Assembly: GCA_964497635.1 (NCBI GenBank)
Contig: CAZCDB010000003.1
Location: 2,582-45,519, forward strand
Direction: 5' to 3'
Length of the DNA stretch: 42,938 bases
Source: an uncultured Planctomycetia bacterium
GTDB taxonomy: Bacteria > Omnitrophota > Gorgyraeia > 2-02-FULL-51-18
Below are positions 20,887 through 38,354 of this stretch, in pieces; position 1 is the first letter of the stretch, and each line of letters starts with the position of its first letter. The translations under genes and the position numbers were made by a program. The notes beneath the pieces were generated by a model. The model had not been told where the DNA came from and did no database searches. It worked only from the letters and a program-made list of their open reading frames with translations.

Positions 20887-23800
20887 TTGTTCAATTTTTT
20901 CAGTCTTATTGTTAGATATACTCCAAGTAAGAGATTTTATCTCAAGCTGATCTCTTTGGGATTGGTATTTACTTTTCTAGGCCAAGAGCTCCTCATGGCG
21001 GCCCCGGATGGGTTTGGTGTGCGTCTTGCGGCTCCTTTTGACAATTTTCAATTACCCGATTCCGTAGCCCTTATTCGTGAAAAATTTTCTGCGCCCGGTG
21101 CGGATCGGTCCATCGTTCTTATCCAAGACGCGCATACCAATGAATCGGCGCAGCTCAATATCGCAAAAGCCATCGATCATATTTTAGTCAAAGAGCAGAA
21201 AATAAAGCATGTATTTTTGGAGGCGGGGACGGGCAATGACTCACTTTCATATCTCAGGCGGTTTTCTTCTATTGAAAAAAGAGAAAAAGTCGCACGGTCG
21301 TTTTTGCGGCGGGGGTTGATTCAGGGGCCGGATTATTTAGATCTGACTTCGGATAAAGCTTTTTCTTTGTGGGGTGTCGAAAATAAAAAACTTTATTGGG
21401 AAGGGTTGGCGCTTTATCGCGACCTCAAGAAAGATAGAGAGCTTCTCGTGGCTGGAGTGGACAGACTCAAACGCGCCAAAAAGACTCTTGCTACGCGTCT
21501 TTGGAGTCCTGCCTTACAGAAAATGGACTCAGGCCGAGAGAGTTTTCTTCGAGGGGAGCTTGGAGCGGCGGATTATTTTGACGCTCTGGTCATGGAAGCT
21601 CGCAAGCTGGGTGTGCCTCTGGAAGTATTTCCGCATTTATCCAAACTTACCGCTCTAAAAAATCAGGAGAAAGAAATCGATTTTAAAAAAGCGTCTTTTG
21701 AAGAAGCAGCACTGGTGGCGTCTTTGCCTGAGTCTGAGCGCACGTCTCTTTTGGCGGTAGCTGCGAAGCTTCGCCAAAAAGATGCTCAAAATCATCGCGA
21801 AGTCCAAGATGCGTTTTATTCTCTTCTCAAGGAAAAAATCAAGAACCCACTTTTTTATGTGCACCTTTCTAAATACATTGAGTATCTCGTAAATTCAAGG
21901 GGTTTTGACGCTGAGGTTGTACTGAAGGAGCGGGAAGATCTTGAAAAAATTGTGTTTGGTCAATTGGCGGGCTCAAGGGACTCGAGGCGTTTGCTTGAGG
22001 CCGCTCGTGCGGTAGAAATTTTGGAGAGACTTTGGCAGCTTGAGATTAGCAAGGAAGATTTTGAGGCCATTCAAAAGAATCCGGGGGCACACAGTTTTCT
22101 AAACCTCGCCGGATTTTTTAATTTGAAACTGATTGAGCTGGGTTCTCACACCGAGGATACGGTACTGTGGGATGAAAAATTTGGCACGGATTATGACAAG
22201 GCGATTAAATTTTATTCGCTAACCCTGGAGCGTGACGAAGCCTTTGTCGAAAACATGCTCAAAAAAATGGACAGAGCAGGCGAGAAAAAAGCGATCCTCG
22301 TCACCGGCGGTTTCCATACGGAGCATTTGAAAGACCTTTTACGCGCTCGCGGCATTTCCTACGCAGTGGTGATCCCCAGAATTTTGCAGGAAACGAATAA
22401 AGAAAAATACGAAAGTCTGCTTTTGGGGCAGATAAAGAAAAACTCATCTAAGATAAAAAATTCAGCCAAAGCGGATGCATGGGCGATCATTCCTCCAGCG
22501 GAAAATAGGCAAATAAGAATCCAGCTTAGTGAGGGGGTTGGGCGGGGATTGGCAGCGGCGCGGTTGGCATCGGCAAAGTTGGGCGGCAAGCACCGAGTAA
22601 GCTATGACGAAACTTTAAAAAAAGATAAGCTTGGAAAAAAATTAAGGGAAATATTCGATAGATCAAGAGTAAAACAAAAGTTTTTTTTAGAACAGATTGA
22701 TCTGGCATTGTCAGTGAAGGGCCATAGTGACGTTAGGATTGGTTCAATTACCTCCCTTCATACTAATTTTTTTGGCGGGATGGCAAGTTATAAGACTTTA
22801 GAACGGGTTGTAAGTGTTGCTGAAAGAATCAACTGGAGCCAGTTGTCAAAGAAAATAGAGGGAAGCGAGCGCCCGGTACGCCGTCCGACTGTAGCAGAAA
22901 GCATTGAAAGTCTTACGGCAGTTCAGAAAAGAGAGTTGATTGAAAAAAGGAAACAAAGTCCGAATGGTCAATTATTGATCAAAGAAGTCGCTCATGTGTT
23001 GGGGGTTACTTCAAGGGCTCTCGGGATCTTTTTTAAAAAAAATCCTTCAGTCCACAAAGCATTTCTTGAGGCGAACCCAATCGCTGCACGGTTGGCACAG
23101 CAGTTCAAGCTGGATATCAATCCCGGGAAATCTTTTTGGTTTCATGACCGAAGATCGGGCAAGGTTTTCCAGGTGCGGCTTGAGTCGATCGATACTATTC
23201 ATCGCCAGATTCAGTTACAGGTGTCGGAAAATGACAAGCCCATCGATGATTGGGGAGGTATTGAAGCTAAAACTTATGAAAGTGAAACTTCTCACAAAAT
23301 ATTTCCCGGGGTCGATGATATTTCAATTGTATTTGGGGATACTCTCACCAATTCACGAGTCGGGTTATTTTTCCCCCATTTCCCGTTTACTGTAAACTTG
23401 CGCCGCAGGAATACCGAAGATCAGCCCGCTTCCATCACTGCTTTTATGGCCGAGACCCGAAGACAGCAGGTTTTGGATGCTTGGGAAAAGTATTTGAAAG
23501 GTGTTGAAGATTATTATCTGTCGGATTCTCCACCAGCCGCTAATGAAGTTTCCACAGCGCTTGAAAAGTGGATCAATAATTCTTTCCGGTCGCCGGACGC
23601 GGCAGTGGAGCCTGATCCGGAAGCGATCGTGTCTTCTATGCGTCAAGCTTTGACAGAGAGGACACGACTCTCAAGGGAAAATATCGACAATGAGATCCAA
23701 GATGCTCGTCTGATCATGATAGAGATAACGAAGCCTATTTCCGAGAAGGAGATAGCTGTCAGTAGTGTCGGGAGATCGGAGGGTAGATTTGAGCTGGTGA

Positions 23801-26800
23801 ATGGAGTTTTGGGTCAACAAAAATTGGCATTAAGAGCGGCGCTGAAAGCTTATTTTGAATCTCGTGGTTTACCCACCGAAGATGCCGATGCCGTGGCCAA
23901 TACGCTGGTCCGGATGACTCCTGATGGGATCAAGCTTTTGATTCGGTGGGGTATTTTGAGTGGCATTCCTGATGAGCAGTCTCTGGAGAATGAGAATTTA
24001 TTTAATAAAATTAAACCACTAATCACTGTTTATGACCAAAAATATCCGGATAAAAAAGAGCTTTTGCTCAAGTATCTGCTTCCCGAGTCAATCCTTGAAT
24101 TGATGGCCCAACACGGTCTTGACCGCGAACGTTTTTTTAGGATTTTAAAGCTTCATCCATCTCCAATTATTGTCCTTCTGCGCCTGATCGATGAACATCC
24201 TCGTGTCGATTTAGGAGTGATCGAGAAGAAAGTAATACAACTTCGCCCCAAAACCCCTATCAGCGAGCAAAATTTATGGCGTATTATCGCTTTGGTGGGC
24301 ACAGAGGAAGCGGCTGCCTGGATTTTGAAAAAAACAAAGGATGTTTCGGCGTTATCTACTTCTATTTCTCTGGATAGAGCGTGGGATAAAGTCATCCGAG
24401 AGGAAGAATTACAAGGTGCGAGGCTAGCAGATGCTTCAACACCGGCTATCTCTCAACTTCATCCGACGATCGGAGACATAGGCCTCTTTGCCGATCGTTT
24501 TCCGATTTTTTCACGTGACAAACATGGGCTCATAAAGTCTGTTCAACGTCTTGCGATGTTACTGCGTAGCTGGATCCGAGAAGCAACAGAATATCTGGAG
24601 CATGGAACGCTTTATTATTACATGATCGAGGGAGTGCCGCACTATAAGGTGACCGGCTTAGGCAGAGACCAAATTGTACAATATTTGCATTACTTTTCTG
24701 GATTAGTGGAAGACTGGGTTAAAAAGGGGATTGTGGACTCGACGGAAGCCTCCATCCTTTCCGTTCAGGTTATGGACCTTTTCTCGTCCTTATTAAAGGG
24801 AAATTTTGATTCCACACAGTCTCATGTTGCAGACGAAGAGGCTAGGGCTGTTATCCGAGTAGCTGAGAACCTCTTGAGGTTTCCTATCAGCAGAATCGGC
24901 TGGGATAAAGAATTCGATAAAACTCCATTTTGGTTAGAAGGACTCTTAAAGGGTTTTCCTGAGAATGCCGCTTTTTATTTAGGCCTCCCAATTTTGCCTG
25001 CACAGGAAAATGCCGAGCGACTATCCAGCGACTATGCTCAATTTGAGGATAGTGACCATCCTGTTTTTATAACCAGCTATGAAAGCCCTGGTGAGCTTAA
25101 GTCACAGAGGATTGTTTATGTGAATCCGGCTTTTCTGAAGATGGTAGGTGGTGAAAAAAAGGATTGGATTGGCAAAAACTATTTTGAAAAAAATCAGAGA
25201 GAACTCGCCGAGAAATACACGCGTGATGACAAGAATGCCATGAACATGGGCCCCGGCCAATTTTTTCATGAAACAGAAACGAATCGAAGTGGGCAGAACC
25301 GGCAGAAACCTGTGACCGTCGAAACAGTCAAGCTCCCGTTTTATAATTATCGAGGCAAGTGGGTGGGTGTGCTTGCGATGTTTGATGTGATCCAAGGAGA
25401 GCAAAGTTCATACGAAATGAATCCCTCCTTACAGAGGACCTTGATAAGGGTACTGCGCCAGCAGCAACAGCTTGGGGTTGGCAGACAGCCAAGGCTGGCG
25501 CGGCTTGGGATTTTGGAGCCGATCAATAAGCCTGCTATTGGGGTCGGAGTTTTGGCTTTCTTGGCTGCTTTGACAGTCTCCTCGCTGATTCCTGCTTTAC
25601 TGATCGGATTTCTCTCAGCTTTAGCCATGGTCGGGATTCAGTCTGCAGTCCTATTAAATGAAGTCAAGGACACCACTTTGGAATTTGTTTTAAGAAATCA
25701 GATACTTTATCAGCGGCAAACTAGGATCGCGAATACGGATATCCAACAGCATTTTGCGGCACGTGTGAAGTCCGCTTTAGATTTCCTTTTGAATCTGACG
25801 CCCCCTACTCTTGAAACTCGTTTACTGGGAAAATTATCAGCACCTTCAATGGGTTGGAAAAATTTCCCAGAATTTCTCTCTGAAAATAGAGCTGCAGTTG
25901 AGCGCGCCGTGGTCCGGCGGGGTTTGAGGCATTTGAAGGCGGCGGCGACAGCCCCGTCGTATGACGGGGCGAGGTTGGCGATGGCCGACAAGCTTAAGAA
26001 TGAACTTTTGGAAGAAGTCTCTGACATCAATCGGACTGAGTATTTTGAGCTCGAGGGGTATCACATTCTTTTGTCATTTGGTAATAAAGGAAAGATCAAC
26101 GGGATTGCTGTTGGGAGGGAAGATCAGGAATCGATCCATGCCATGGAAGAGGATGAGGGCAGGGGCCGTGTTGCTGAAGTCACTTCCTTGGCGGGAGGTG
26201 TGCTCATCACGACCTACACGGATCAGAAAAAAACAGAGGTTGCCGAAAGGTGGCATGTCGGAATGGTAACAATTGAGGGCCAACCACGATACAGAATAGC
26301 CACTATGGAGCTGCAAGGAGAAGCTTTGCTTGCGGGTCGTGGAGTCGCCTTTGACGATTGGCGCGTGGATGAAGAGGGAAATCCGGCGGCGAGGTTGGCG
26401 GCTACTGTCAAAGACATCCCCCTGTCTACCCGAGGTTCTGGGAGGGAGAAACAACTTTTTCTGGAGGCGATGGTTCGTCACTCGGATCGTGTGGTGGTGA
26501 GTGATCCGAAGTCGCTGTATACAGTCTCCAAGTTTGGGGACGAGAAAGCTCCCAAGGATCCAAATAATTCGAAGGATCTCAGCAATTCGGAGCTTGCCAG
26601 TTTTTTAAGAGCCAAGGCCAATTTGGAAGAAATTTTTAAAACCATCCCTGAGCTATTCCCTGAGGCTCAATATCCGGGTTTGAGCGAAGAGATCAGGCAA
26701 TCTATGGCTGTCGTGGCGGTCATGACGGATACTTATCTTCTGGCTCCGATCTCTTTGAGTCCGTCGTACCGGTGGGGTCGTTGGAGAAATAGTCGTTCAA

Positions 26801-29800
26801 GACCTATTCTGTACGCCTCCTTCAAGGATCTATCTTCCATACGTTCACAGCGTGATCGAATAGGCCACCAAACATCCCAAGATATTATTTTGGCGGCTTA
26901 CGCGGTTGTGCATGGATGGTATTGGTACAAAACCTACAAGCAAAACCAAAGTATCCCTGCCGACAAACTTTCTGAATTATTGGCTAATTTCGAGAAGCAA
27001 TGGGATTTAAAAGAAGAGCCCTATCTGAGTTTTCGTTACAAGGCTAAAACCGCATGGCATCTTTTTTGGGACCGGTTTGCCTTGGCGCGCCACCGGAGAG
27101 AGCGCAGAAAAGATTTTGAATTTTACCGGGAGCATTTGAATATTCATGATGAAACGGTCCGCCAGATATTGGTGGATGCCGGGCAGACGGGTCCTGTGAT
27201 TGACCGGACGACAACCGAGAGTGAAGAAACGCGGTCTCATCGCAATGCTTTCACGCCGGTGTTTGAGCGTCTGAGAAATTTTGCAGAGGAGGCCATGGCC
27301 CTGGGAGATTTTGAACAAGCTCTTCTTATCGCCAAAGAAGCCAAGCGTTTTCTGCTTCACATCAATATTGTCGACAGCGGACAGCTGCCGATCGAAGTTT
27401 TTATCCGATACTTGAAGCTGTTGTTTCGCACGGGGCATTATCAGGAATTTTTAAAATCTATCCAAGAGTTCAAAGACGGTTTTATTTCGATCGATGAACA
27501 GCGTATTCAGGTCCCCAGCCAAGAAAAGGGATGGTTTACGAAGCTGTTGCAAATTTTTGAGCCTTGGTTTGAGGGGATCGTGCTGAGAAGTTTACAAATC
27601 ATGAAGGATTCTCCCGATAAACAAAACCTGAATCAGTTTGCTGATTTGGCCAGATGGCATTTAAGGGAAATTAAGTCGGAGGTTCAAAGGCTCGACGCGA
27701 CTGCGGCGCGGTTGGCGGAAGCTCCTGCAATTAGTATGTTTGAGGATTTTCCTGACACTAAGGATTTTGTTTCTCCGATCGAATACGGCAAAAAAGTCAG
27801 CGGGACTTTTATGCCGTTTCACCACATGAGGCACTTGCGGGATTGGGGGATTGGCAATTTTGAGTCGGCGATCAAGATGGCGGGGGTATTCAAAAAATTG
27901 GGCTTAAAGATCATGCAAATATTGCCCTTGATTTGGTCGGATGCTTTTAATTCCCCTTATTCGGAAGCCAGCTCTCGTGCGATTGATTTGCGCTATATCA
28001 GTGTGCCGATGCTGGTGGATCAGCTGACTCAAGAATTTGGCGAGAAAATCGAATTTTCAAAATATAAAGAATTTTTAGCTAAAAATAAAAGTCAGATTGA
28101 AGCGGTTCGCACAGGCGATGTGATCAATCACGAAGAAGTGATCCGCCTCAATAAAGAAGCGCTGGAGGCCATTTGGGAAAATCTAAGCCATTCTCCTGAG
28201 TTTGAGAATAGCAAAACTTTCGAGGCTTTTAAGACATTTAAATCAGAAAATGACGACTGGTTAGAGGATCACATGCTGTATCTTCTTTTGAAAGAAGAGA
28301 ATATGGCCAGAGACCCCTACAACGGCTGGGATTGGAGGACTTGGGTCGACGCCAGTGGCAATGAAGCAGAGTCGCTGAAGATTCGTCAGAGAGACCCGGC
28401 AAAAATTGACGCACTCAAAAAAGATCCCCGATACAGTTCCCGCATCGCATTGTATTCCTATATCCAGTTTGTGGCGTATTCCCAGTACGACAAGTTTGTC
28501 GCCGAAGCCAAGAAGCAGGGTGTGGATGTGGCCGTGGATGTGCCATTTGCGCGGGGAGGAGCGGACATCTGGATGAATCCAGAAATTTTTGGCCTCAGAA
28601 AAGAAAATGGCTACCAGAGGCCGTTCACGCACGGCTCTCTGCCTGAGGAAACGTACAACATTGGCCAATACTGGCAGTTTTTTGCCTATGATTGGAAGCA
28701 ACCAGGAACATTGAAGTACATGCTCAAGCTTTTTGAGCATTACCAGAAAATGGCCCCCTACATCCGCATTGACCACGCGTTGGGGTTTTATATGCCGTAT
28801 TTATTCATGGAGGATGGTAAGGGTGAGTTTACGCTCCAAAAGCTAGGAATTTTTGAGGATGTCTCAAGGATTGTGCAAGCTGCTAAAGCTGAAATCGCCC
28901 GAAATGTTAGCAGGACGGATGAGATAAAAGAGAGAGCCGCCAGAGAAGTCACCACAATTTTTATCCGTGCTCTAAAAAATTCGGAGCAGGTCAAAGCCAA
29001 TCCTCTCGTGGAGCGCCTGGTAAATTTGGCCTATCCCAACGATACAGAAGCGCTGAGCGAATACGCGATGATGTACGTGGCTCGTGAAGCTAAGAAGACA
29101 AATGAAGAATATGAAACTTTAGGGGATCCGTGGGTGCGCGTCAATGATGTGGTGGAGGCCAAAGTTTTTGACGAGGGCGATAAAAGACGGCCGGTTTGGA
29201 ACTATATCCGCCTCACGAAGCATGAATTTGGTAAAAAAGATCCAAATGACCGCAATCCCAACGAGAAAGAAAGACGCGATTATAAGAATGGCATGATCGA
29301 GTATCTTTTTGGCAGCGAGGAGCCAAAACCTGAAGATAATTTACGAGTTGCCTCTTACGACAAGGGTCCGGGTGAAGAATTTTTATCGCCTCTTCTGAAG
29401 CTTGCCAGGCAAAAAGGTACGACGGTTATTTCCGAAGCGCTTGCACGCTTTATACCGGACGGGCTTGAGAAGCCGCATTTAAGCGCCTATGACTATGTTT
29501 GCTCCATGTGGGGCAAAGAAAAAGAGGGTGCTGATAAGAATATCCACAATCCGCGCGCTCACCAGCCTTATGCTTTTAGGACTTACAGCCTGCATGACAC
29601 CAAAGCTTTGCGCGGAGACTGGAAAGAAGCGACAAAAGAGAAAAAGACCCAAATCCTGAATGATCTGGGTATTTCCCCCACGGAGGAGAATTTGTCTGAG
29701 TTGACTCCCCAAGTTCACAAAGCACTTTTGAAACTGAGTTTTGATTCCGATTCTTTGATGGTTGTGATCGGCTGGCTCGACATTTTGGGATACGATGACG

Positions 29801-32800
29801 ACAGAAAATTGAATAAGCCAGGAGAGACCGGTCATTGGAAAAACCGCCTTCTTGTCAGTGCGGAGATGCTAGACGCGGTTTTGGATGGGAAAACAGAGGT
29901 CGGTGGTGAGCCCATCTCCGAAGACGTCAGGACTGCCGTGAATGATCTGCGCGAGTTGACTGCCGAAAGAGAAGCAAGCTCTCAACGCGAGCTTTCAGAA
30001 AAAATAGAAAGGACCCTTATCCGTCATAGTCCGGATATGGACAACCACCGCATTGAAGTTGAGCAATTTCGTGATGGGTCCAACACCCAGATAGAACCCT
30101 TTTTAATCGAGAGCTATGTTTCAAGCACAGCGGAAAATGTATCAGTCAAAATACGTTATCGGGACAACGCGGGACAGATCCAGGAAAATGAATTTTCGAT
30201 GGTCCAAGACACCCAAGCTTCCACTCCCGAGGGAATCTCAAGGTATTCGATCGCACTAAAAGCCGGCCAAGTAGGGGAGTTTGAGTTTCAGATAGAGGCG
30301 AAGGATGAAAGTGGAAGCACCATTTCTTCTGAAAAAGGTTATTTATATGCGGTAGCCCATAAAGAGGGTCTCAACCCCACTTCAGGGGATTATTTCATGA
30401 AAAAGAGAGAGTATTCTTCCTTGAGTGTGGCCGCGGCACGGTTGGCGGAGAAATCCACCAGTCTTTATCAGCGAGTGGCTGAAGCCCTCCGTCTTGAGGG
30501 AATTCATCGTATTATCAATCACCCTGGCACTACTCACACCACCGATGTTTTAAATCAAGTTTTTCGGGAAAGAGAAAATCTTGTTTGGAGTAAGCTGTTA
30601 ACCTTTTTAGAACAACAACGCCTAGAAAAAGGAGCGGATGGAATTTATTTTTCACCCTATTTTTCAGTGCGGACGCTTCGAGAAGTCCTGAAAGAGAATG
30701 CTACTAATCCATCGGGAGTTTCTTTTCATCGAGGAACAGCTGGCACGACCCTTGATTTCAAGCTTTCCGCAAGGAATCCTAGAGAAATCGTCTATCTTGG
30801 GCTAGAGGCCGCAGAAAGTGCCGGAATTGAGATGAACGTCAATAGAGCTAGTGCTCTTAGGGTCAAAATCCGGGAAGGGACATCCCTCATGGCTGTTTAT
30901 GAGCCCGGTGAAAATCAGCTCGTGCTGGCAAGGCGTTTGGATGATCTTCTGAGATCCAACAAAAAAGAGGAGCGTGAGCGGGCGTTGCAGATTGCCAAGC
31001 GGGACATCTTGCTTGGGTTTGCCAGAGAGTTTACACGACAAAACAAATATGGGGCCGCCAGAGATCTTGTGGAACATAATATTTCGTATCCACCGCAGGA
31101 TGATCCAGTGGTTTATGAGCGTCTATCAAAGCAGTTTATGGAAGACATTGTCACGGGGGACGATTCTTTAATTTTTGTTACTTTTTTAAGAGCATTGATT
31201 CAATTAAGTCAGCAGTTTGCTCTTTTGAGACCCGCCATTTCTTGGTTTCAAAACTGGGTTTTTCAGCGTCTGACAAGTAATGCCATCACTGCTTCGGATC
31301 TAAAAAGGGCGGCTGATCATCTTGCAATATCTCTTGAAGATTACCCCTACGGATATATCGCGCTGCGAGGGCTTGCAGGATACATTCGTGATGGGTATGT
31401 TTCTGGCCAGCCGGATCTAGATATGGAAAGGGTATGGGCGCCTTGGGATCTTCTAGCTACTTTCGAGGAAGTTTATCGCTCAAGTCAAAAACGGAGCGCG
31501 AAGGTGGAATATTGGTTGCATCGAGTGAAATCATCATGGCAAGCTCGCTGGAAAAAACACCTAGAAACTTTACACTATGATCAGTTTTATGGGGTGGATG
31601 TCCAAAAACAGAATGGTCTAGAAGCTTTGTCGCCTAAAGCGACGCCGCTGGGCGTGGAATTTAATCTATCCAATCATCATCTGGAAAAGACGATTGATCA
31701 AGAAGTCAACCGTTTAAAAGCTAACGGTCATGAGGATTTAGACAAGCTGAGTCGTATCTTGGGAAGTAAAAAAGATACGAGATCAATCGTCAAGGCATTG
31801 GTCAGATCTGCCCGTAAACAGCCTGAGACGGTTTCTATTGCTGGAAATTTTCTCGAAAATAAACCCTTTGGAATGTCTCATATTCATGTGGGTCCACACT
31901 CACGAATGGTAGGGGACTTGGAGCAGGGCTGGAAAACCCGGCGCCAGGGTGTTTATTCAAAGGGTGAAGGCTGGATTTGGACGGTTGCTTTTGAAGTGCC
32001 CCCCTCTGCTTTTAAGGAACCCAAACATATCCAATACAAATATGTCATCCATTTAACCCGCGGAGAAGAAACTTATGATTTTTGGCTTCCAGATCCCTCA
32101 GTACAAGAACACACCACGGATGGGTATCACAGTTCAGTGATTAAAGTGAGTCCTAAAAAAGAGGAGATCAAGCGTATGACGCGCAGAGATCCCAGCCCCG
32201 GTGTTGTTTCTCTACAGCTAAATCTCGCTCTTGAGGCACCCTCGCCCAAAAGTTTAGCCCAGACGAAATTTAAAAATCCGGTGCAATGGCTTACCGCTAA
32301 CCTGCAATCTCCAAGATTTAGTCGGTATAGACGTATTCAGCTGGCCACAACGCTGACACTGGGGACTGCTCCATGGCTTTCGGGTTATGCACCAGCGGCC
32401 TATACTTCGGATCTAGGACAGTCGGAGGATTTTCGGGCTCTTGAAAAACGGGCAAGGGAGCTGGGTGTCGAGTTGGTTTATGATTTTGTTGCTGGCCACA
32501 CAGATCCTTATCGTCATCCGTTACCTCTATCCTCTTATTCTTACGCGGATCTTGGTGGGGGGATCGCCGGGACCCTCAGTATTTGGTCACATCATATTGA
32601 TGATCAAAACCCTCAGTCAGTAGCGCAGCTATTATGGTGGCTTAAGGCGGTCGGTATTCCCTCGACGAGGGCGGATGTTGGTGGAAGTATTTCTCAGTGG
32701 CTTCACTTGGAAAGGCGCCGGCAGGAGCCTGATGCCACCGCCATTGTGGAATGGGGTGACACGGCTGTTCAGGACCCATTTACTGAGCTTTACTTTAAGG

Positions 32801-35800
32801 ATATTTTTGAAGCTCTTGAAAGAACGAGTGCATCTGTACCATTCAATCAAATGTTACAACTTCTAGAGGATAAGCTCGCAGGCCTTGATGCCGACAAGCG
32901 GCTTTTGATGATTTGGAATAATCATGACGAGAGTCAATATCAGGGGGGGGTGGGTGCTTTTGTAAAAGGGCTAGACAAAGGCACTGCGGAGAAAAAACTC
33001 ATGGCTTTGTATACAGCTTACATAATTCTTCACTTGACCCATCTAAACCGGACAAGCGTCTTGGAATATTCTCCGGACCGGTTTGGATTTACAGGTCATG
33101 ATGTTTTTATGTTTGGTGAATATGGAAGGCGAGAAAGACCTAAGTGGAAAAAGAATAGAAATATTGATTTTATACGCTTACACAACAAGTTATTGGCGGT
33201 GGCAAACGCTGTGGCCCAAGAGAAAACACCGGCGGAAAGAGTCGGGACCAATAATTCCTACGTGGGCGCCGCGATCACGACAATCAACGACAAACGACAA
33301 CTTATTTTAACTAACGTTTCCGGAAGCCATCAGAGGGGAAATATATGGATCGATGGAAAGGCTTCCGACTTCGATCTTCCGGCTTATGGGGTGTCTATTC
33401 AGGATTTGCGGAGTTTGACGGCTGCACGGCTGGCCTACAAGGATGAAGTGAGAGCCTACGCTGATCAGGCGGACAATGTCGTGAGTGACCTTTTACAAAA
33501 AGCACCTGATCTGGCAGTGATCCAAAACCATGTCACAAGACTTGTTTATCCTGCCGCCGGAAACGACGTGAAGACCGTGGTTTCTTTGATGAAGGTTTTC
33601 CCCAAGGTCAACCATCTATATGTCATCGATACAGCCTATCAAGGCCCGCCGGCTATGAATGGCCGGACATGGAAAGACTATTGGGAAGAGCGGATAAGGG
33701 AAGCCGCCAGGGAAAATGGAGTCACTCCCGATCCAAATCTTGTTGTATCTGTTATCAGCCGGGATTATCACTTTCTTAATCACCGGGATATTCCTGTGCT
33801 TCCCGCAGGTCAGCATACGGTCGTGATCGAAAGCAGATGGCCTCATGGCATTCATTTTATGGAGCAAATTTTCAAACAGAATCGCGAGGGTGACGTGGTG
33901 ATCGCCTTTAAGCCGCCGCATACGGTTCGCGAATATTTAAACCCGCAAAGCCTGGCTCCCGATTCTGTTCAGGGTCTCAGTTTGCCTTATTTGTATGAAT
34001 CGAGAAGATATTGGATCGCGACCACCCTCCGGTCGATTTCGGAAAAATCAGCCCAGCTTCAAAGAGCCGCTGCCCGCCTCGCCAAGTCCTCGCTGCTGGA
34101 TCAAAAAGTGAGCCAGATGATTGCGGGGATTCGCGGGATGGATGGACATCTTTTGGAGCTGACGCAAATCGTCCAAAAAGAAATGAAGGCGGGTCTTAAA
34201 GGGAAAAAAAGTTCCCTACCCATGATTCCTAGCTCGGTCCCGGTGCCGGATCTTGCGGCGCTTGTCGGCCAACGTGTGGTGTACGCAGATCTGGGAGGAT
34301 CGACGATTCACATTGGAGCGATCGAGATAGGTAACGGTGGCAATATCAAAGTATTGTGGCATGAGGATATTAAGCTTGGCGACAACATCTCCATCGGTGG
34401 GCGAAAACTTTTTGATTATATTGCCCAAGAAATTGCCACTTCCATCAAGCGACATCAAAAACAAGGCTCAAAAGATATCACCAAGATGAGCTTTACTTTT
34501 TCATTTTCTCACCAAGACGGGAAAATTTTACCGGAAGCCCACGGAACCAAAGGATTTGATTTTAAAAATGTCGTGGGAAGAAATGTCAAAAATCTAGTCA
34601 ATCGGCGACTCAAAAAATTGGGCGTCGGCGGACTCCGTGTCGTCGTCGTGGCCAACGACACGGAAGGAGCCATGATCCTCGGAAATCTGACTCTTCCCCG
34701 GGTTATTTTTTCAGTCATCGCGGGGACAGGGTTTAATACGGCGGTGTGGATTGATGGAACACTGTACAACATGGAATCCGGTGGTCTGGTAATTCCGAAA
34801 GAGTGGCTAACGCCTCATGATCTCCCGCTTGTCAAACGCGGTGCCGAGGAGCTGATCGCAGGAAAATTTTTAGGAGAGCAGTTGCGCGTGAGGCTTCTGG
34901 ACTTGGCAAAAAATGATAATCTTTTTTCAGGACGTATTTCAAAAAAATTAACGATTGAAGAAGGCATTTCTTCTAAAAACGTTTCTAGGATTTACCTTGC
35001 TCGGAGTGATAAAAAAGTTCAGAGTATTTTGTACGGACTGGGAATCCGACAGGTAAGTCCGAGAGATATTCAAGCAGTCCGGCAAATCGCCGCCGCTTTA
35101 TTTGAGCGCTCTTACAAAGTCAACGCCGCCATCATCGCCGGCGGCTTTTCGTTGGAGCCTATAAAAACTAAATCTCCACAAATCGCCGCGGACGGAGCGC
35201 TCTGGAATATCCCAGCCTATCTTCAGGGCGCTCAGCGACAGCTTCGCAGTCTTGCGCAAAAACTAGATATAAGCGGAGAACCAAAGATTCATCAAGTCCA
35301 AAACGCCTCCGGTGTCGGCGTGGGCGCAATCGCGGCAGTGGTGACCCAAGCCCCGACGGGAGCGCGGTTGGCGACTTCACCGGCGACTCCCATCACTTAT
35401 GGAAGAGATCTCGCCTCTATTTTGGCCAATCAACTAGGGGAGCCTAAATTTTTTCCCTTGGCCAGATTGGGAAGTAATTCTCAAATTCACGTCGAAGTCG
35501 TTTTTAAGATATCCGATGCTGAATCCAAAAGACTGAGTCTTACATTAATGAATGGAGCGACTGTAAATCATCCAGATCCTTCTAAAAACGCACGGGATTT
35601 TTTCACAAGAAAATTGGATATTTCCGAAAGTGATTTTGATCAACTCGAATTTATCCTGACGGTTGATCGAGTCAGTCAAATACTTACCATCGAGCCGAAA
35701 GAGCCCAAAAAAATTGGGGCGAGGTTGGCTCTTCGGCGCGGCCTTTCAGGCTTTGCTCAGGACTTCTCGGAAGGACAGCTTAACGCATTGAAGGTTTTCA

Positions 35801-36648
35801 TCTGGGAGGCGGCTAAAGCTAAAGAATTTCACGGCGAGTTTCCCGTGGAAGTGGATCCTAATACCGATGCGGCGTTGCTTCGTGTGACCAAAAATTCTTC
35901 GGGAGTGGCCGAGCTTTGGGTGCGGGGTGGGACAGAACCTCTTTTGACTGTTTCGCGGCAGGAATATTTGGGTTTGAAACATCAATTAAAATCTTCCGTG
36001 AGCTTTAGTGGTTTGAAAGACCTTGCGGCCGGTGTTAACGCGCAGGTAGATTTCTTTTTGAATCAAGTGGATCCTCATATCGATCACGATAAGCCCGTTG
36101 CCCTTGAGCTTGATACCAAATATTTGGACTCCGTTTCTGAGAGTTATCTAGAGGCATTCATTCTTCATCTGGAAACAGAAGCCGAAAAAGTATATGGAAA
36201 AAATGTTTATTTTCTGCCGATAGGCAAGAGCGCTTCCCAGTGGATTCAAAGAGCGCCTAAAATATTTTCTACAGAGCCTCCTCAAGGTTTGTCCGAAATC
36301 CGCCGCGTGAAAGTTGTGCCGCCCGCTCAAGCCAATGACTTGTCCAAGCGTGATCTACCCCTATTACCTCTTGGAGAGGGTGATCTACCGCTGTTTAGTT
36401 TCATCCGCCTGGCCATCTATGAAGGCCGTCTACCAGATATTACGAATCGTCCTGAGGCATTTGACAACGCCTATGCGACACTGGCCGGAGGCCATCCGGA
36501 ATCAAGTATTTTAACCTTAATCCTTTCAGGTAAAGCAGATGCCGAGACAGCCGCTCAACACGCTGTCCGTGCCCTCCTGCGCGTAGATGTCAATCTAGCC
36601 ATTCGTTTCGTTGACCATATGAGGCGTATGCTCGCCCAATCCGCTTAA
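20887..36648 (+). CDS. Giant modular polyprotein-like protein (5253 aa) with [A/G]ARLA-delimited cargo domains
   Basis: Uninterrupted 15.8-kb ORF with recognisable PAS, GH77, GH13, methyltransferase-like and hexokinase domains, separated by 11 exact [A/G]ARLA motifs. Confidence 0.95.
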   Translation: MFNFFSLIVRYTPSKRFYLKLISLGLVFTFLGQELLMAAPDGFGVRLAAPFDNFQLPDSVALIREKFSAPGADRSIVLIQDAHTNESAQLNIAKAIDHILVKEQKIKHVFLEAGTGNDSLSYLRRFSSIEKREKVARSFLRRGLIQGPDYLDLTSDKAFSLWGVENKKLYWEGLALYRDLKKDRELLVAGVDRLKRAKKTLATRLWSPALQKMDSGRESFLRGELGAADYFDALVMEARKLGVPLEVFPHLSKLTALKNQEKEIDFKKASFEEAALVASLPESERTSLLAVAAKLRQKDAQNHREVQDAFYSLLKEKIKNPLFYVHLSKYIEYLVNSRGFDAEVVLKEREDLEKIVFGQLAGSRDSRRLLEAARAVEILERLWQLEISKEDFEAIQKNPGAHSFLNLAGFFNLKLIELGSHTEDTVLWDEKFGTDYDKAIKFYSLTLERDEAFVENMLKKMDRAGEKKAILVTGGFHTEHLKDLLRARGISYAVVIPRILQETNKEKYESLLLGQIKKNSSKIKNSAKADAWAIIPPAENRQIRIQLSEGVGRGLAAARLASAKLGGKHRVSYDETLKKDKLGKKLREIFDRSRVKQKFFLEQIDLALSVKGHSDVRIGSITSLHTNFFGGMASYKTLERVVSVAERINWSQLSKKIEGSERPVRRPTVAESIESLTAVQKRELIEKRKQSPNGQLLIKEVAHVLGVTSRALGIFFKKNPSVHKAFLEANPIAARLAQQFKLDINPGKSFWFHDRRSGKVFQVRLESIDTIHRQIQLQVSENDKPIDDWGGIEAKTYESETSHKIFPGVDDISIVFGDTLTNSRVGLFFPHFPFTVNLRRRNTEDQPASITAFMAETRRQQVLDAWEKYLKGVEDYYLSDSPPAANEVSTALEKWINNSFRSPDAAVEPDPEAIVSSMRQALTERTRLSRENIDNEIQDARLIMIEITKPISEKEIAVSSVGRSEGRFELVNGVLGQQKLALRAALKAYFESRGLPTEDADAVANTLVRMTPDGIKLLIRWGILSGIPDEQSLENENLFNKIKPLITVYDQKYPDKKELLLKYLLPESILELMAQHGLDRERFFRILKLHPSPIIVLLRLIDEHPRVDLGVIEKKVIQLRPKTPISEQNLWRIIALVGTEEAAAWILKKTKDVSALSTSISLDRAWDKVIREEELQGARLADASTPAISQLHPTIGDIGLFADRFPIFSRDKHGLIKSVQRLAMLLRSWIREATEYLEHGTLYYYMIEGVPHYKVTGLGRDQIVQYLHYFSGLVEDWVKKGIVDSTEASILSVQVMDLFSSLLKGNFDSTQSHVADEEARAVIRVAENLLRFPISRIGWDKEFDKTPFWLEGLLKGFPENAAFYLGLPILPAQENAERLSSDYAQFEDSDHPVFITSYESPGELKSQRIVYVNPAFLKMVGGEKKDWIGKNYFEKNQRELAEKYTRDDKNAMNMGPGQFFHETETNRSGQNRQKPVTVETVKLPFYNYRGKWVGVLAMFDVIQGEQSSYEMNPSLQRTLIRVLRQQQQLGVGRQPRLARLGILEPINKPAIGVGVLAFLAALTVSSLIPALLIGFLSALAMVGIQSAVLLNEVKDTTLEFVLRNQILYQRQTRIANTDIQQHFAARVKSALDFLLNLTPPTLETRLLGKLSAPSMGWKNFPEFLSENRAAVERAVVRRGLRHLKAAATAPSYDGARLAMADKLKNELLEEVSDINRTEYFELEGYHILLSFGNKGKINGIAVGREDQESIHAMEEDEGRGRVAEVTSLAGGVLITTYTDQKKTEVAERWHVGMVTIEGQPRYRIATMELQGEALLAGRGVAFDDWRVDEEGNPAARLAATVKDIPLSTRGSGREKQLFLEAMVRHSDRVVVSDPKSLYTVSKFGDEKAPKDPNNSKDLSNSELASFLRAKANLEEIFKTIPELFPEAQYPGLSEEIRQSMAVVAVMTDTYLLAPISLSPSYRWGRWRNSRSRPILYASFKDLSSIRSQRDRIGHQTSQDIILAAYAVVHGWYWYKTYKQNQSIPADKLSELLANFEKQWDLKEEPYLSFRYKAKTAWHLFWDRFALARHRRERRKDFEFYREHLNIHDETVRQILVDAGQTGPVIDRTTTESEETRSHRNAFTPVFERLRNFAEEAMALGDFEQALLIAKEAKRFLLHINIVDSGQLPIEVFIRYLKLLFRTGHYQEFLKSIQEFKDGFISIDEQRIQVPSQEKGWFTKLLQIFEPWFEGIVLRSLQIMKDSPDKQNLNQFADLARWHLREIKSEVQRLDATAARLAEAPAISMFEDFPDTKDFVSPIEYGKKVSGTFMPFHHMRHLRDWGIGNFESAIKMAGVFKKLGLKIMQILPLIWSDAFNSPYSEASSRAIDLRYISVPMLVDQLTQEFGEKIEFSKYKEFLAKNKSQIEAVRTGDVINHEEVIRLNKEALEAIWENLSHSPEFENSKTFEAFKTFKSENDDWLEDHMLYLLLKEENMARDPYNGWDWRTWVDASGNEAESLKIRQRDPAKIDALKKDPRYSSRIALYSYIQFVAYSQYDKFVAEAKKQGVDVAVDVPFARGGADIWMNPEIFGLRKENGYQRPFTHGSLPEETYNIGQYWQFFAYDWKQPGTLKYMLKLFEHYQKMAPYIRIDHALGFYMPYLFMEDGKGEFTLQKLGIFEDVSRIVQAAKAEIARNVSRTDEIKERAAREVTTIFIRALKNSEQVKANPLVERLVNLAYPNDTEALSEYAMMYVAREAKKTNEEYETLGDPWVRVNDVVEAKVFDEGDKRRPVWNYIRLTKHEFGKKDPNDRNPNEKERRDYKNGMIEYLFGSEEPKPEDNLRVASYDKGPGEEFLSPLLKLARQKGTTVISEALARFIPDGLEKPHLSAYDYVCSMWGKEKEGADKNIHNPRAHQPYAFRTYSLHDTKALRGDWKEATKEKKTQILNDLGISPTEENLSELTPQVHKALLKLSFDSDSLMVVIGWLDILGYDDDRKLNKPGETGHWKNRLLVSAEMLDAVLDGKTEVGGEPISEDVRTAVNDLRELTAEREASSQRELSEKIERTLIRHSPDMDNHRIEVEQFRDGSNTQIEPFLIESYVSSTAENVSVKIRYRDNAGQIQENEFSMVQDTQASTPEGISRYSIALKAGQVGEFEFQIEAKDESGSTISSEKGYLYAVAHKEGLNPTSGDYFMKKREYSSLSVAAARLAEKSTSLYQRVAEALRLEGIHRIINHPGTTHTTDVLNQVFRERENLVWSKLLTFLEQQRLEKGADGIYFSPYFSVRTLREVLKENATNPSGVSFHRGTAGTTLDFKLSARNPREIVYLGLEAAESAGIEMNVNRASALRVKIREGTSLMAVYEPGENQLVLARRLDDLLRSNKKEERERALQIAKRDILLGFAREFTRQNKYGAARDLVEHNISYPPQDDPVVYERLSKQFMEDIVTGDDSLIFVTFLRALIQLSQQFALLRPAISWFQNWVFQRLTSNAITASDLKRAADHLAISLEDYPYGYIALRGLAGYIRDGYVSGQPDLDMERVWAPWDLLATFEEVYRSSQKRSAKVEYWLHRVKSSWQARWKKHLETLHYDQFYGVDVQKQNGLEALSPKATPLGVEFNLSNHHLEKTIDQEVNRLKANGHEDLDKLSRILGSKKDTRSIVKALVRSARKQPETVSIAGNFLENKPFGMSHIHVGPHSRMVGDLEQGWKTRRQGVYSKGEGWIWTVAFEVPPSAFKEPKHIQYKYVIHLTRGEETYDFWLPDPSVQEHTTDGYHSSVIKVSPKKEEIKRMTRRDPSPGVVSLQLNLALEAPSPKSLAQTKFKNPVQWLTANLQSPRFSRYRRIQLATTLTLGTAPWLSGYAPAAYTSDLGQSEDFRALEKRARELGVELVYDFVAGHTDPYRHPLPLSSYSYADLGGGIAGTLSIWSHHIDDQNPQSVAQLLWWLKAVGIPSTRADVGGSISQWLHLERRRQEPDATAIVEWGDTAVQDPFTELYFKDIFEALERTSASVPFNQMLQLLEDKLAGLDADKRLLMIWNNHDESQYQGGVGAFVKGLDKGTAEKKLMALYTAYIILHLTHLNRTSVLEYSPDRFGFTGHDVFMFGEYGRRERPKWKKNRNIDFIRLHNKLLAVANAVAQEKTPAERVGTNNSYVGAAITTINDKRQLILTNVSGSHQRGNIWIDGKASDFDLPAYGVSIQDLRSLTAARLAYKDEVRAYADQADNVVSDLLQKAPDLAVIQNHVTRLVYPAAGNDVKTVVSLMKVFPKVNHLYVIDTAYQGPPAMNGRTWKDYWEERIREAARENGVTPDPNLVVSVISRDYHFLNHRDIPVLPAGQHTVVIESRWPHGIHFMEQIFKQNREGDVVIAFKPPHTVREYLNPQSLAPDSVQGLSLPYLYESRRYWIATTLRSISEKSAQLQRAAARLAKSSLLDQKVSQMIAGIRGMDGHLLELTQIVQKEMKAGLKGKKSSLPMIPSSVPVPDLAALVGQRVVYADLGGSTIHIGAIEIGNGGNIKVLWHEDIKLGDNISIGGRKLFDYIAQEIATSIKRHQKQGSKDITKMSFTFSFSHQDGKILPEAHGTKGFDFKNVVGRNVKNLVNRRLKKLGVGGLRVVVVANDTEGAMILGNLTLPRVIFSVIAGTGFNTAVWIDGTLYNMESGGLVIPKEWLTPHDLPLVKRGAEELIAGKFLGEQLRVRLLDLAKNDNLFSGRISKKLTIEEGISSKNVSRIYLARSDKKVQSILYGLGIRQVSPRDIQAVRQIAAALFERSYKVNAAIIAGGFSLEPIKTKSPQIAADGALWNIPAYLQGAQRQLRSLAQKLDISGEPKIHQVQNASGVGVGAIAAVVTQAPTGARLATSPATPITYGRDLASILANQLGEPKFFPLARLGSNSQIHVEVVFKISDAESKRLSLTLMNGATVNHPDPSKNARDFFTRKLDISESDFDQLEFILTVDRVSQILTIEPKEPKKIGARLALRRGLSGFAQDFSEGQLNALKVFIWEAAKAKEFHGEFPVEVDPNTDAALLRVTKNSSGVAELWVRGGTEPLLTVSRQEYLGLKHQLKSSVSFSGLKDLAAGVNAQVDFFLNQVDPHIDHDKPVALELDTKYLDSVSESYLEAFILHLETEAEKVYGKNVYFLPIGKSASQWIQRAPKIFSTEPPQGLSEIRRVKVVPPAQANDLSKRDLPLLPLGEGDLPLFSFIRLAIYEGRLPDITNRPEAFDNAYATLAGGHPESSILTLILSGKADAETAAQHAVRALLRVDVNLAIRFVDHMRRMLAQSA
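21100..22400 (+). other. Giant protein N-terminal domain, TraB/TIKI/EreA-ChaN-like with helical insertion
   Basis: IVLIQDAH (H83), VFLEAG (E112), LWGVE, ERDEAFVENML (R449), AILVTGGFH (H477); the order matches the H...E...R-D/N...GxxH pattern of that superfamily. Recognised by eye only. Confidence 0.55.
25051..25392 (+). other. PAS domain within the giant protein, followed by a hydrophobic hairpin (25531-25656)
   Basis: HPVFIT...RIVYVNPAFLKMVG...DWIGKN...YTRDD...VETVKLPFYNYRGKWVGVLAMF. Confidence 0.8.
27718..30432 (+). other. GH77 4-alpha-glucanotransferase (MalQ-like) module plus C-terminal beta-sandwich-like region
   Basis: WGIGNF, MQILPL, SPYS, WLEDHMLY, GADIW, GQYW, IRIDHALGF (D2629), ISEAL (E2850), SLHDT (D2904), LNKPG...HWKNR. 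Confidence 0.9.
31860..33420 (+). other. CBM-like domain plus GH13 alpha-amylase-family domain
   Basis: WIWTV...QYKYVI...WLPDP; LGQSEDFRALEKRARELGVELVYDFVAGHT (region I), TRADVG (D3930), IVEWG (E3955), WNNHDE (D4014); C-terminal beta domain LILTNVSG...FDLPAYGVSI. Confidence 0.8.
33436..34068 (+). other. Class I SAM-dependent methyltransferase-like module
   Basis: RLVYPAAGND (motif I-like) followed by HLYVID (acidic residue at the end of strand 2); 211-aa module. Confidence 0.45.
34084..35358 (+). other. Hexokinase module (Hexokinase_1/2 type)
   Basis: SSLPMIPSSV, YADLGGST, LFDYIA, SFTFSF, TKGFD..NVVGRNV, VANDT, IAGTGFN, YNMESG, EELIAGKFLGE, AADGAL. Confidence 0.92.
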
Positions 36649-36651
36649 TTT

Positions 36652-36660
36652 TGATATAAT
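36652..36660 (+). promoter_or_regulatory. Extended -10 promoter (TGA-TATAAT), probable leaderless ilvD transcript
   Basis: Perfect TGnTATAAT 8 nt before ATG 36669, no Shine-Dalgarno. Confidence 0.7.
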
Positions 36661-36668
36661 CCCCAGCT

Positions 36669-38354
36669 ATGACAGCAAACCCACTGAATAGCAGAAGTTC
36701 TGAAATTACCGCCGGGGACTATCGTGCGCCCAATCGGGCGATGCTTCGTGCGGTGGGTTTTAAGGACGCGGATTTTGAGAAATCCATCATTGGGATTGCC
36801 AGCGCTTGGAGCAATCTCACCCCTTGCAACATGCACATTGACCAGCTGGCCCGCAAAGCGGACGAAGGGGTTCGCTCAGGCGGCGGCGTGCCGTTGACTT
36901 TCGGGACGATCACAGTTTCCGACGGAATTTCCATGGGAACGCAAGGGATGAAATATTCCCTGGTGAGTCGTGAGGTGATCGCGGACTCGATTGAAGTGGT
37001 TTCCTCGGCTCAGCGCTTTGATGGGCTTGTCGCCATCGGGGGTTGTGATAAAAATATGCCCGGCGCTCTCATGGCGATCGCGCGCATGAATATCCCCAGC
37101 GTTTTTGTCTACGGCGGCACGATCAAGCCCGGAAATTTTGAAGGCAAGGACATCGACATCGTCAGCATTTTTGAAGCGGTGGGTTCTTACAGTGCGGGGA
37201 AGATTACCAAGGATCAATTTAAAGGCGTGGAGTGCAACGCCTGTCCCGGGGCCGGCTCTTGCGGCGGGATGTACACGGCCAATACGATGGCCTCCGCGAT
37301 CGAGGCACTGGGAATGAGTCTGCCTTTTAGTTCCTCCGCGGATGCCGAAAGTGACCAAAAAAGAAAAGATACTCACGAAGCGGGCAAGGCCGTCCTTGAG
37401 CTTGTCAAAAAACAAATTCTTCCACGGTCGATTTTGACCAAAAAAGCTTTTGAAAATGCGATCACGGTGGTGATGGCCCTCGGCGGCTCGACCAATGCGG
37501 TGCTTCACTTGATGGCGATCGCCAATGAAGCGCGCGTGAAGCTTGTGCTCGATGATTTTAACCGCATCTCTAAAAAAGTCCCCCACCTGGCGAATCTTAA
37601 GCCCAGCGGTAAATATGTGATGAGTGATTTAAACAAAGTTGGCGGAATTCCAGGGGTCATGAAAATGCTTTTGGATGCCAAACTCATTCACGGGGATGCG
37701 ATGACCGTCACCGGAAAAACAGTGGCTGAGAATTTGAAAGATGTAAAACCAGTTTCCAACACTGAAATTGTGAAACCTCTTTCCAATCCTCTATACCCAA
37801 CGGGTCCTATGGTTGTTCTGCGTGGCAACTTGGCTCCCGAGGGGGCTGTCGCCAAGATCGGGGGTCTTAAAGTTTTTACACACCGTGGCCCCGCCCGCGT
37901 CTACAACTCCGAAGAAGAAACCTTGAAAGCGATTTTATCTAAAAAAATAAAACCTAACGATGTGATCGTTGTACGCTACGAAGGCCCCAAAGGCGGCCCC
38001 GGCATGCGCGAGATGCTGGCGGTCACCAGCGCCATCATCGGCGCGGGACTCGGAGACTCTGTAGCGCTTATCACGGACGGGCGATTCTCGGGCGGGACTC
38101 ACGGGTTTGTCGTGGGGCATGTGGCGCCGGAAGCGGCGGTGCGTGGACCCTTGGCAGCGCTCCAAAACGGGGATATCATCGAAATTGATGCCAAAAAGCT
38201 CTCGATTCGCGTCGAGCTTTCCGACAAAGAAATCAAAGCACGCCTTAAAAAACTAAAACCCTATTTTCCAAAAATTCGCACTGGGGTCTTGGCCAAATAT
38301 TCCCGTCTTGTTTCTTCTGCTGCCACCGGGGCGATCACCACGCATGACCTCTAA
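36669..38354 (+). CDS. ilvD: Dihydroxy-acid dehydratase
   Basis: [50 protein letters not shown] and TDGRFSGG motifs. Confidence 0.97.

Follow-up and report, generated by a model that had tools for sequence, protein, structure and literature searches.

Introduction

Giant multi-enzyme proteins of Omnitrophota have been described under the names 'Archaeovorins' and 'multi-enzyme metabolic clusters'; they are chains of thousands of residues with an N-terminal signal or transmembrane segment and unrelated enzyme domains, glycolytic ones included. A 42,938-nucleotide stretch of an uncultured bacterium placed in this phylum by GTDB (assembly GCA_964497635.1, contig CAZCDB010000003.1, positions 2,582 to 45,519, forward strand; hereafter the window) encodes a comparable protein of 5,253 amino acids (aa) in one open reading frame (ORF), here called the giant ORF, in which 11 copies of the pentapeptide [AG]ARLA separate the modules. 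The likeness extends to a very long frame tiled by unrelated families (PAS, GH77, hexokinase) and to signal or transmembrane-like segments, placed by a hydropathy scan at aa 21-39 and about aa 1546-1590. For the published proteins, C39 or S8 domains were proposed to carry out cleavage, and information on cleavage points was stated to be lacking, for which reason the chains were not split for analysis (West-Roberts et al. 2023 preprint, as far as its text was available); the C39 domain proposed there was not found in the present genome. The roles of 'multi-enzyme metabolic' giants are called poorly understood in a 2026 preprint (10.64898/2026.06.07.730766), the accessible part of which has no occurrence of 'cleav', 'polyprotein', 'motif' or 'linker'. 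The same is said of giant-gene roles in a 2023 Nature Microbiology paper, again with no 'cleav' in the portion of its text at hand. Full-text literature searches for the motif strings, or for Omnitrophota together with Tiki, TraB or polyprotein, returned nothing relevant; within the literature so searched, supplements excluded, a shared head domain, a clade-specific punctuation and an exchange of cassettes at the motif appear undescribed.

Separation of many products from one chain at short sites is known elsewhere. In viral polyproteins (picornavirus 3C, flavivirus NS3) many proteins are encoded per ORF and are parted at short junction sites by an in-chain protease, site and protease co-varying; the giant ORF differs in its cellular origin, in the shuffling of cargo between paralogous carriers and in its signal-like N-terminus. 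Surface precursors cut at repeated short sites are represented by the gingipains RgpA/Kgp/HagA of Porphyromonas and by the P97/P102 adhesins of Mycoplasma hyopneumoniae (S/T-X-F|X-D/E); these have few adhesin or protease domains, not at least 10 unrelated enzymes, and neither a TIKI-like head nor a genome-specific pentapeptide. MARTX toxins are large exported carriers with exchangeable effectors that are freed by an in-chain protease at short inter-domain sites. The analogy with MARTX drawn in the original prediction is kept as a functional likeness, that of a large carrier with exchangeable modules, in which an in-chain protease is only a candidate here; it does not extend to the machinery, neither Peptidase_C80 nor RTX repeats being detected in the giant ORF at E ≤ 0.01. 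The two further differ in that the ends of the giant ORF are an N-terminal domain and a distinct conserved C-terminal module, a TIKI-like domain at the N-terminus is the candidate protease, the pentapeptide is invariant, the cargo consists of metabolic enzymes and at least 8 paralogues occur per genome. RRSP, an effector carried by MARTX toxins, belongs to the TIKI family and is a site-specific endopeptidase (PMC6254334, in the part consulted).

Results

The giant ORF and its pentapeptide

The frame and the motif copies in it are as follows (window coordinates, strand, feature; motifs by pattern match).

20887..36648, +, giant ORF; single open frame, 5,253 aa, TTG start, both ends complete
22555..22569, +, motif 1, AARLA (aa 557), directly after the N-terminal domain
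23083..23097, +, motif 2, AARLA (aa 733)
24415..24429, +, motif 3, GARLA (aa 1177)
25966..25980, +, motif 4, GARLA (aa 1694)
26386..26400, +, motif 5, AARLA (aa 1834)
27703..27717, +, motif 6, AARLA (aa 2273); aligns with the GARLA that starts the GH77 module of the orthologue in the same-genus genome G047, upstream sequence unrelated
30433..30447, +, motif 7, AARLA (aa 3183); aligns with AARLA in G047, similarity stops there
33421..33435, +, motif 8, AARLA (aa 4179)
34069..34083, +, motif 9, AARLA (aa 4395)
35359..35373, +, motif 10, GARLA (aa 4825); aligns with AARLA in a G047 paralogue (L108)
35716..35730, +, motif 11, GARLA (aa 4944)
25486..25500, +, QPRLA (aa 1534-1538); aligns with the intact AARLA that ends the homologous PAS-containing segment of a same-genus homologue (L109 in G047), and is probably, on this alignment, a decayed site that fused two modules

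All 11 copies listed in the original prediction were recovered at the same residues, every ARLA of the protein has A or G in front, and the module lengths given there (171, 439, 512, 135, 434, 905, 991, 211, 425, 114 and 305 aa) are consistent with these positions. From residue composition 0.037 copies are expected; in 2,000 shuffles of the sequence the motif occurred 0.041 times on average and at most twice, in keeping with the earlier estimate of a number far above chance. Separately assembled contigs from three of four runs of one freshwater metagenome sample (possibly the source of the window; DNA contigs only) cross 21517-37000 unbroken with all 11 sites and without a joint, so that the giant ORF is not a chimera glued together at repeats. 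At 21417-21546, inside the N-terminal domain, the contigs of all four runs break or carry a 130-base piece of half depth; this looks like a bubble of strain variation, not a joint at a motif.

Distribution in the genome and level of constraint

The genome (1.457 Mb, 102 contigs, 85.6% complete) was searched in six-frame ORFs of at least 80 aa, and 89 copies of [AG]ARLA were obtained in 25 ORFs. The enrichment anticipated for the genome was found: 83 copies fall in 22 giant ORFs (62,841 aa), 6 in the other 758,676 aa. The 22 giant ORFs, most of them cut by contig ends, make up 12.9% of the genome DNA, and 19 carry the motif; the variant [AG]ARLS is enriched as well (9 in giant ORFs vs 4 elsewhere). 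In a logo of 87 genome-wide copies information above 0.5 bit is confined to the five motif positions, as the earlier claim of unrelated flanks had it. Within 5-10 aa of the motif bulky hydrophobic residues are depleted (0.22-0.24 vs 0.32) and P/S/G/T enriched (0.31 vs 0.23), a trend common to 77 sites of this genome and 1,061 sites of 98 related proteins.

An 11-base DNA consensus of the motif has 22 occurrences, 20 of them in frame 0 of giant ORFs; with 0-1 mismatch allowed, the opposite strand has none and the other frames have 2. Of 38 in-frame 11-mers one mismatch off the consensus 33 still encode ARLA, against about 27% by chance (our own count of possible single-base changes), and all six arginine and all six leucine codons are used at the motif. 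Because one-mismatch variants are mostly synonymous, frame 0 is used almost exclusively and all Arg and Leu codons occur, selection is judged to act on the peptide, not on the DNA. That [AG]ARLA is a functional peptide signal at module borders is held with high confidence.

Cargo modules and domain borders

The domains assigned between the motifs are listed below.

25105..25392, +, PAS domain (aa 1407-1502) in module 3; PAS_4, E 4e-08
25522..25656, +, internal hydrophobic stretch (about aa 1546-1590, ca. 45 aa) in module 3, by hydropathy scan; probably a two-helix hairpin
27841..29853, +, GH77 4-alpha-glucanotransferase domain (aa 2319-2989); PF02446, 198.1 bits vs cut-off 25
30448..33420, +, 991-aa module (aa 3188-4178) of no assigned family; one sub-threshold Alpha-amylase match
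34135..35340, +, hexokinase (aa 4417-4818); Hexokinase_1 + Hexokinase_2 (PF00349 + PF03727), 86.4 and 69.6 bits vs cut-offs 24.3 and 24

GH77 had been read as beginning just after aa 2277, which agrees with a Pfam start 41 aa past the motif at 2273; the match is stretched (671 aa for 452 profile positions), and the enzyme is a divergent second copy beside a canonical stand-alone one of 548 aa on contig C49. Hexokinase, expected between the motifs at 4395 and 4825, was placed there by Pfam; it fills its module, starting 17 aa past one motif and ending 6 aa ahead of the next, and is the sole hexokinase found in the genome. The GH13 C-terminal domain proposed to end at aa 4178 was not substantiated: Alpha-amylase scored 13.2 bits vs a cut-off of 22 (E 0.054) over 32 residues. 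A PDB sequence relative was not found for this 991-aa module, and searches with unannotated cargo modules gave no PDB or Pfam match at the thresholds used.

In the 31,480 aa scanned (giant ORF plus eight paralogous pieces) none of 57 motifs lies within any of 12 Pfam envelopes (5.2 expected; P ca. 0.004), which supports the claim that no recognisable domain is interrupted. Borders are close elsewhere too: an aldose 1-epimerase module leaves 23 aa and 3 aa to the flanking motifs, HATPase_c ends 4 aa ahead of a motif and a starch-synthase-like (GlgA-like) enzyme starts 10 aa past one; the median length of internal modules is 477 aa. In an all-against-all BLAST of 105 motif-cut pieces the N-terminal pieces join, together with four small two-member clusters; the cargo pieces of the giant ORFs are otherwise unrelated to one another.

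Exchange of cargo at the motif

Comparison with genome G047 was carried out for the gain and loss of cargo at motifs that had been foreseen, and motifs were found to align at module edges, the cargo between them differing. The G047 orthologue (2,676 aa) has an N-terminal domain 59% identical to that of the giant ORF, retains the GH77 module (49%) and the C-terminal module (41%), has two unrelated modules in place of five and is without the 991-aa, 211-aa and hexokinase modules; its first site reads AARLG. Hexokinase, with the small module after it, is found in a different paralogue of G047 (50% identical). Motifs are aligned at every edge common to the two genomes (AT|AARLA with AD|GARLA; A|AARLA with V|AARLA; PT|GARLA with DS|AARLA) and the next 5-15 residues are rich in insertions and deletions; at the GH77 edges similarity ends at the motif. 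Two other family proteins (P0018, P0015) have hexokinase cassettes with motifs at the corresponding positions on either side and unrelated neighbours. Over 162 high-scoring segment pairs of cargo among 98 proteins, the ends lie a median of 37 and 26 aa from the nearest motif, vs 215 and 192 aa at random (200 placements).

The N-terminal domain

A domain of about 520 aa (N-domain) is common to all giant ORFs whose start is intact and is 29-38% identical between paralogues; eight were found in the genome by profile search.

20920..22554, +, conserved N-domain (about aa 12-556); near-invariant D81-x-H83, E112, R449-D450, G474-G475-x-H477

Among 223 N-domains D81 is conserved in 219, H83 in 221, E112 in 222, and R449 and H477 in all 223; GG ahead of H477 is conserved too. 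The spacing is D81-x-H83, +29 to E112, and R449, +28 to H477, with an insertion of about 330 aa without annotation between E112 and R449. TIKI-family enzymes have a 2His/2Glu set and a conserved Arg, represented by E3900, H3902, E3930 (+28), R4001 and H4030 (+29) in RRSP, an endopeptidase that cuts Ras; in Bcr135 H85 and E113 belong to the set (PMC6254334, in the part consulted). The ordered 2His/2Glu-type set with its basic residue is thus present in the N-domain as a pattern match, with Asp as the first acidic residue where the TIKI set has Glu. In the TIKI/TraB/ChaN/erythromycin-esterase superfamily [DE]-x-H...E...R...H have the same order and local spacing as in the N-domain, which differs in the insertion and in matches that are all sub-threshold.

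By hhalign against TraB/GumN, R449-D450...GG-x-H477 is paired with an invariant R-N...G-x-G-H; P improved from 0.034 for small alignments to 9.4e-4 (probability 22%) for 223 vs 120 sequences, and against a single TraB sequence the signal peptide was matched and nothing else. In a member-by-member Pfam scan 2 of 23 N-domains matched ChaN ('Tiki superfamily'; E at least 0.037) and 2 of 23 DUF5694 (E at least 0.0018). The profile search among mid-length proteins gave 28, none with a bridging Pfam annotation; PF01963 is absent from this genome and present in 1 of 151 genomes of the phylum. A PDB sequence relative of the N-domain was not obtained, the PDB profile search giving spurious coiled-coil matches only. 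Residue pattern and alignments taken together suggest that the N-domain is a candidate TIKI-superfamily hydrolase; if it is such a relative, the chain heads would be related to enzymes known for site-specific endoproteolysis. It is the sole hydrolase-like candidate from the Pfam scans on the giant ORF and had not been noticed in the original prediction.

In some genomes the sole copy is a stand-alone N-domain protein of about 520-620 aa with no cargo (G113:C3:46403-47833; G127:C3:128857-130323), which suggests that the N-domain is an autonomous enzyme. A 4,895-aa ORF on contig C24 of the present genome (L002, G000:C24:1186-15870) has N-domain-like ends around a run of N and one [AG]ARLA; its seemingly compact N-domain is not to be trusted, the run (residues ca. 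104-137) being a scaffold gap.

Ends of the protein and topology

The two ends of the chain are as follows.

20947..21003, +, N-terminal hydrophobic segment (aa 21-39) with K/R ahead, ending ...QELLMAAP, by hydropathy scan; signal peptide or signal anchor
35731..36645, +, conserved C-terminal module (aa 4949-5253), ending ...RRMLAQSA; 41% identical to the G047 C-terminal module

In alignments the Q-[DE]-h-x-aromatic-A-A ending of the N-terminal helix recurs in paralogues and homologues. The original prediction spoke of an exported carrier; this is upheld in part, the signal-like helix fitting an exported or an anchored protein alike. By the positive-inside rule the N-domain and most of the cargo would lie outside the cytoplasm. 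The C-terminal module is conserved in 28 of 187 family proteins (quick two-round search).

Among the same 187 proteins (P0003-P0225; 36610-36645 of the window for the giant ORF) the C-terminus is AA or SA in 133 and SL or AL in 19, and a motif-like pentamer stands in the last 25 residues of 29, mostly 8 from the end. A cut after [AG]A, which would leave each module with an end resembling the natural ...[AS]A terminus, was considered as a pointer to the scissile bond and dropped: the RSE-type clade has the same termini and no A before its motif.

The protein family and its motif variants

A profile of six paralogous N-domains, run against 1.84 billion proteins, gave 9,179 representatives at E ≤ 1e-3 and 5,338 at E ≤ 1e-30; the domain starts within the first 45 residues in all 150 of the matches listed. 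The search for homologues of 2,889-9,193 aa gave 83, with source names mostly Candidatus Omnitrophota or Omnitrophica, some being auto-labelled Planctomycetia, Eisenbacteria or Elusimicrobia. Enzymes dominate the precomputed Pfam lists of the homologues, the accessions being those we take to denote hexokinase, aldolases, PGK, GAPDH, PEPCK, isocitrate lyase and malate synthase and, further, glutamate dehydrogenase, adenylate kinase, kinases and methyltransferases. The N-domain is encoded at 565 places in representative genomes, often several per genome; it is present in 117 of 151 genomes sampled from the phylum (92 of 124 of high quality), with at least 8 scored matches in most of the bearers and a longest open frame of 14,309 aa.

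The pentapeptide is replaced by others in the following clades.

[AG]ARLA, close relatives
GTRL[SA], P0003
GSRLA, P0016
GAR[MA]A, P0008, P0019
RSE[LMVAI]R, P0064, P0075, P0078, P0081 and others
[AG][AQ]SLG, P0057, P0060
GFGA, P0053, P0056

Copies of the variants lie about 100-1,500 aa apart, and the first, as a rule not far past the N-domain, is at residues 454-710 in 7 of 8 proteins inspected; in P0056, where the N-domain match covers 38% of the query, it is at residue 2531. In the 98 related proteins, which were picked by motif count, so that overall enrichment there is not independent, 3 motifs fall in the first 500 aa vs 132 if uniform; past residue 500 the first site is found at a median of 589, and before 750 in 92 of the 98. 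Paralogues of one genome share a variant: three CAZBAY loci have GARMA, three CAYJVC loci GAR[AM]A and four CAMDWQ loci ARLA. A tree of 34 N-domains (quick tree, with support from the Shimodaira-Hasegawa-like approximate likelihood ratio test, SH-aLRT, only) has paralogues of one genome on both sides of its deepest, fully supported split, and in CAYJVC AR[MA]A is kept on both sides of this split, beside ARLA-using neighbours. The motif follows the genome, not the N-domain lineage; therefore its reader serves all paralogues of a cell.

Neighbouring genes

Apart from the ORFs listed here the neighbours of the giant gene are housekeeping genes.

16989-19064 and 19111-20769, +, directly upstream; tandem paralogous ORFs, 691 and 552 aa, 53% identical over 440 aa
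4033-9222, -, 1,729-aa ORF
9803-10465, -, 220-aa ORF, no Pfam family
12057-13452, +, two adjoining, overlapping thymidylate-kinase-family genes, 242 and 237 aa

The two tandem ORFs have signal-like N-termini and no Pfam family; as partner genes they were rejected, no counterparts being found beside other giant genes. The 1,729-aa ORF (signal-like start, no Pfam match, no [AG]ARLA; in a region of strong AT skew, about -0.3) is a large protein of a kind other than the motif family. Homologues of the 220-aa ORF, 58-75% identical, lie 4-8 kb upstream of the N-domain in seven related loci (L050, L052, L069, L075, L076, L082, L094); it may represent conserved synteny or a partner gene.

Discussion

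From N to C the chain would consist of a signal-like helix, an enzyme-like head of about 520 aa, unrelated and mostly enzyme-sized cassettes and a conserved C-terminal module, with [AG]ARLA in a short hydrophilic linker at each junction; the giant ORF is one of at least 8 such proteins in the genome. In the mechanism proposed, one exported or membrane-anchored precursor would be made and then cut at each pentapeptide into separate proteins, among them the only hexokinase detected in the genome. As the variant in use goes with the genome and not with the lineage of the N-domain, the recogniser would act on all paralogues of the cell; the best candidate would be the N-domain, in cis and in trans, the alternative being a separate protease such as one of two S8 subtilisins encoded elsewhere in the genome, on contigs C2 and C25 (C39, as said, was not found). 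The cleavage reading is preferred because a peptide-level signal lies in linkers, a site follows the hydrolase-like head, the head itself is free of sites and the motif switches in concert within a genome. On balance, the sequence evidence leans towards the pentapeptide being a cleavage site of a polyprotein; that the N-domain is the protease may be entertained at less than even confidence. Observed are the motif, its selection as a peptide, its place at module borders, the family with its clade variants and the turnover of cassettes at the motifs; cleavage, scissile bond, protease, compartment and role of the cargo are inferences, and the 'ARL/A' cut of the original prediction is a guess.

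Several observations weigh against the preferred reading. The assignment of the N-domain is below every significance threshold: Pfam and NCBIfam gave no match even at E ≤ 10, and hhalign to TraB aligned the C-terminal block only, at a probability of at most 22%, the N-terminal H...E block failing to align. Motif discovery found no enriched motif in 17 family proteins ending ...SL or ...AL. Relaxed-motif matches inside cargo alignments number 59, and no more than 13 of them are paired with a motif of the partner; several of the unaligned ones, situated in the conserved C-terminal module, may be chance matches. The position of the motifs in short hydrophilic linkers is read from composition and domain envelopes only, and an ATP-dependent hexokinase outside the cytoplasm is awkward, a difficulty that would be removed by a different topology or by a site of action in another cell. 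Some nucleotide-level constraint is indicated by the codons: CGG is used at 46 of 83 motifs (14% background), TTG at 55 of 83 (24%), GCG or GCA predominate for the second Ala, and like trends are seen in several other mid-GC genomes.

If the chain were never cut, it would stay an intact membrane-tethered string of enzymes, in which the pentapeptide serves as a docking or hand-over signal (chaperone, module-wise export, N-domain binding); this is the rival to be taken most seriously, and is considered unlikely rather than remote. Conservation of a peptide in linkers suits any recognition motif equally, and the one clade without a detectable motif implies that the basic function may be possible without it. 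Several cargo families, among them glutamate dehydrogenase, GAPDH and class I aldolase, are active as homo-oligomers, which is hard to reconcile with enzymes that stay tethered. Near-invariant hydrolase-type residues throughout the N-domain family, a site always directly after this domain, modules sized like free-standing enzymes and a genome-specific switching of the motif typical of a protease and its substrate likewise speak for cutting, none of them decisively. Published work treats the proteins as membrane-anchored giants (10.64898/2026.06.07.730766, in its accessible part), which accords with an uncut string.

The codon usage described above would be accounted for if the selected element were a nucleic acid, the 15-nucleotide GCN-GCR-CGG-TTG-GCN acting as a recombination junction, an RNA-processing signal or an internal initiation signal and the peptide being a by-product; cassettes moved between paralogues with breakpoints at the motif, and a Leu or Met codon at position 4 that is often NTG, are in line with this. 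It is nevertheless improbable: 33 of the 38 one-mismatch variants are synonymous, frame 0 of the coding strand is used almost exclusively, 18 of 83 Leu codons are not NTG, the peptides of other clades are unrelated and include RSE[A]R and GFGA without a start-like codon, and Rfam gave no match in the window. Still less credence is given to a strict MARTX-type toxin, the effectors of which would be freed in a eukaryotic cell by an inositol-phosphate-activated cysteine protease cutting after Leu, as the MARTX CPD does. A modular protein with exchangeable cargo and a site with Leu followed by a small residue, [AG]ARLS being enriched too, would fit; against it stand the absence of C80 and RTX repeats from the giant ORF noted in the Introduction, position 4 being Met or Ala in sister genomes, a cargo mainly of central-metabolism enzymes and the freshwater metagenome as sample, while no C80 match was found in the genome either, in a search whose control also came up empty. 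Chance, low complexity or an assembly artefact can practically be set aside, with 0.037 copies expected, at most 2 in shuffles, the architecture recurring in hundreds of other assemblies and separate contigs crossing the sites.

Returning to polyprotein processing as the preferred reading, the punctuation rule would make the cleavage hypothesis directly testable and, with the conserved head, would allow thousands of giant chains to be divided into units the size of a module that can be annotated and submitted to structure prediction. The head would be a candidate protease family with a programmable five-residue specificity ([AG]ARLA, GARMA, RSE[LMV]R, GFGA, [AQ]SLG). If cleavage is true, this would be the broadest use of polyproteins known to us in a cellular organism, and would bear on the delivery or display of enzymes by ultra-small epibiotic bacteria. 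We put forward, as a tentative and rather doubtful proposal, that Omnitrophota may devote a considerable part of their coding capacity to exported polyproteins, in which a TIKI-type protease at the head would cut a genome-specific pentapeptide and free at least 10 enzymes per chain; cassettes would be swapped at the sites, and the enzymes would act outside the cytoplasm of the producer (at its surface or in a host or prey) and rewire carbohydrate and energy metabolism. Should the exported-polyprotein reading be true, these chains would parallel, in a cellular organism, the polyprotein strategy of viruses, and there would be a rule for cutting them in silico.

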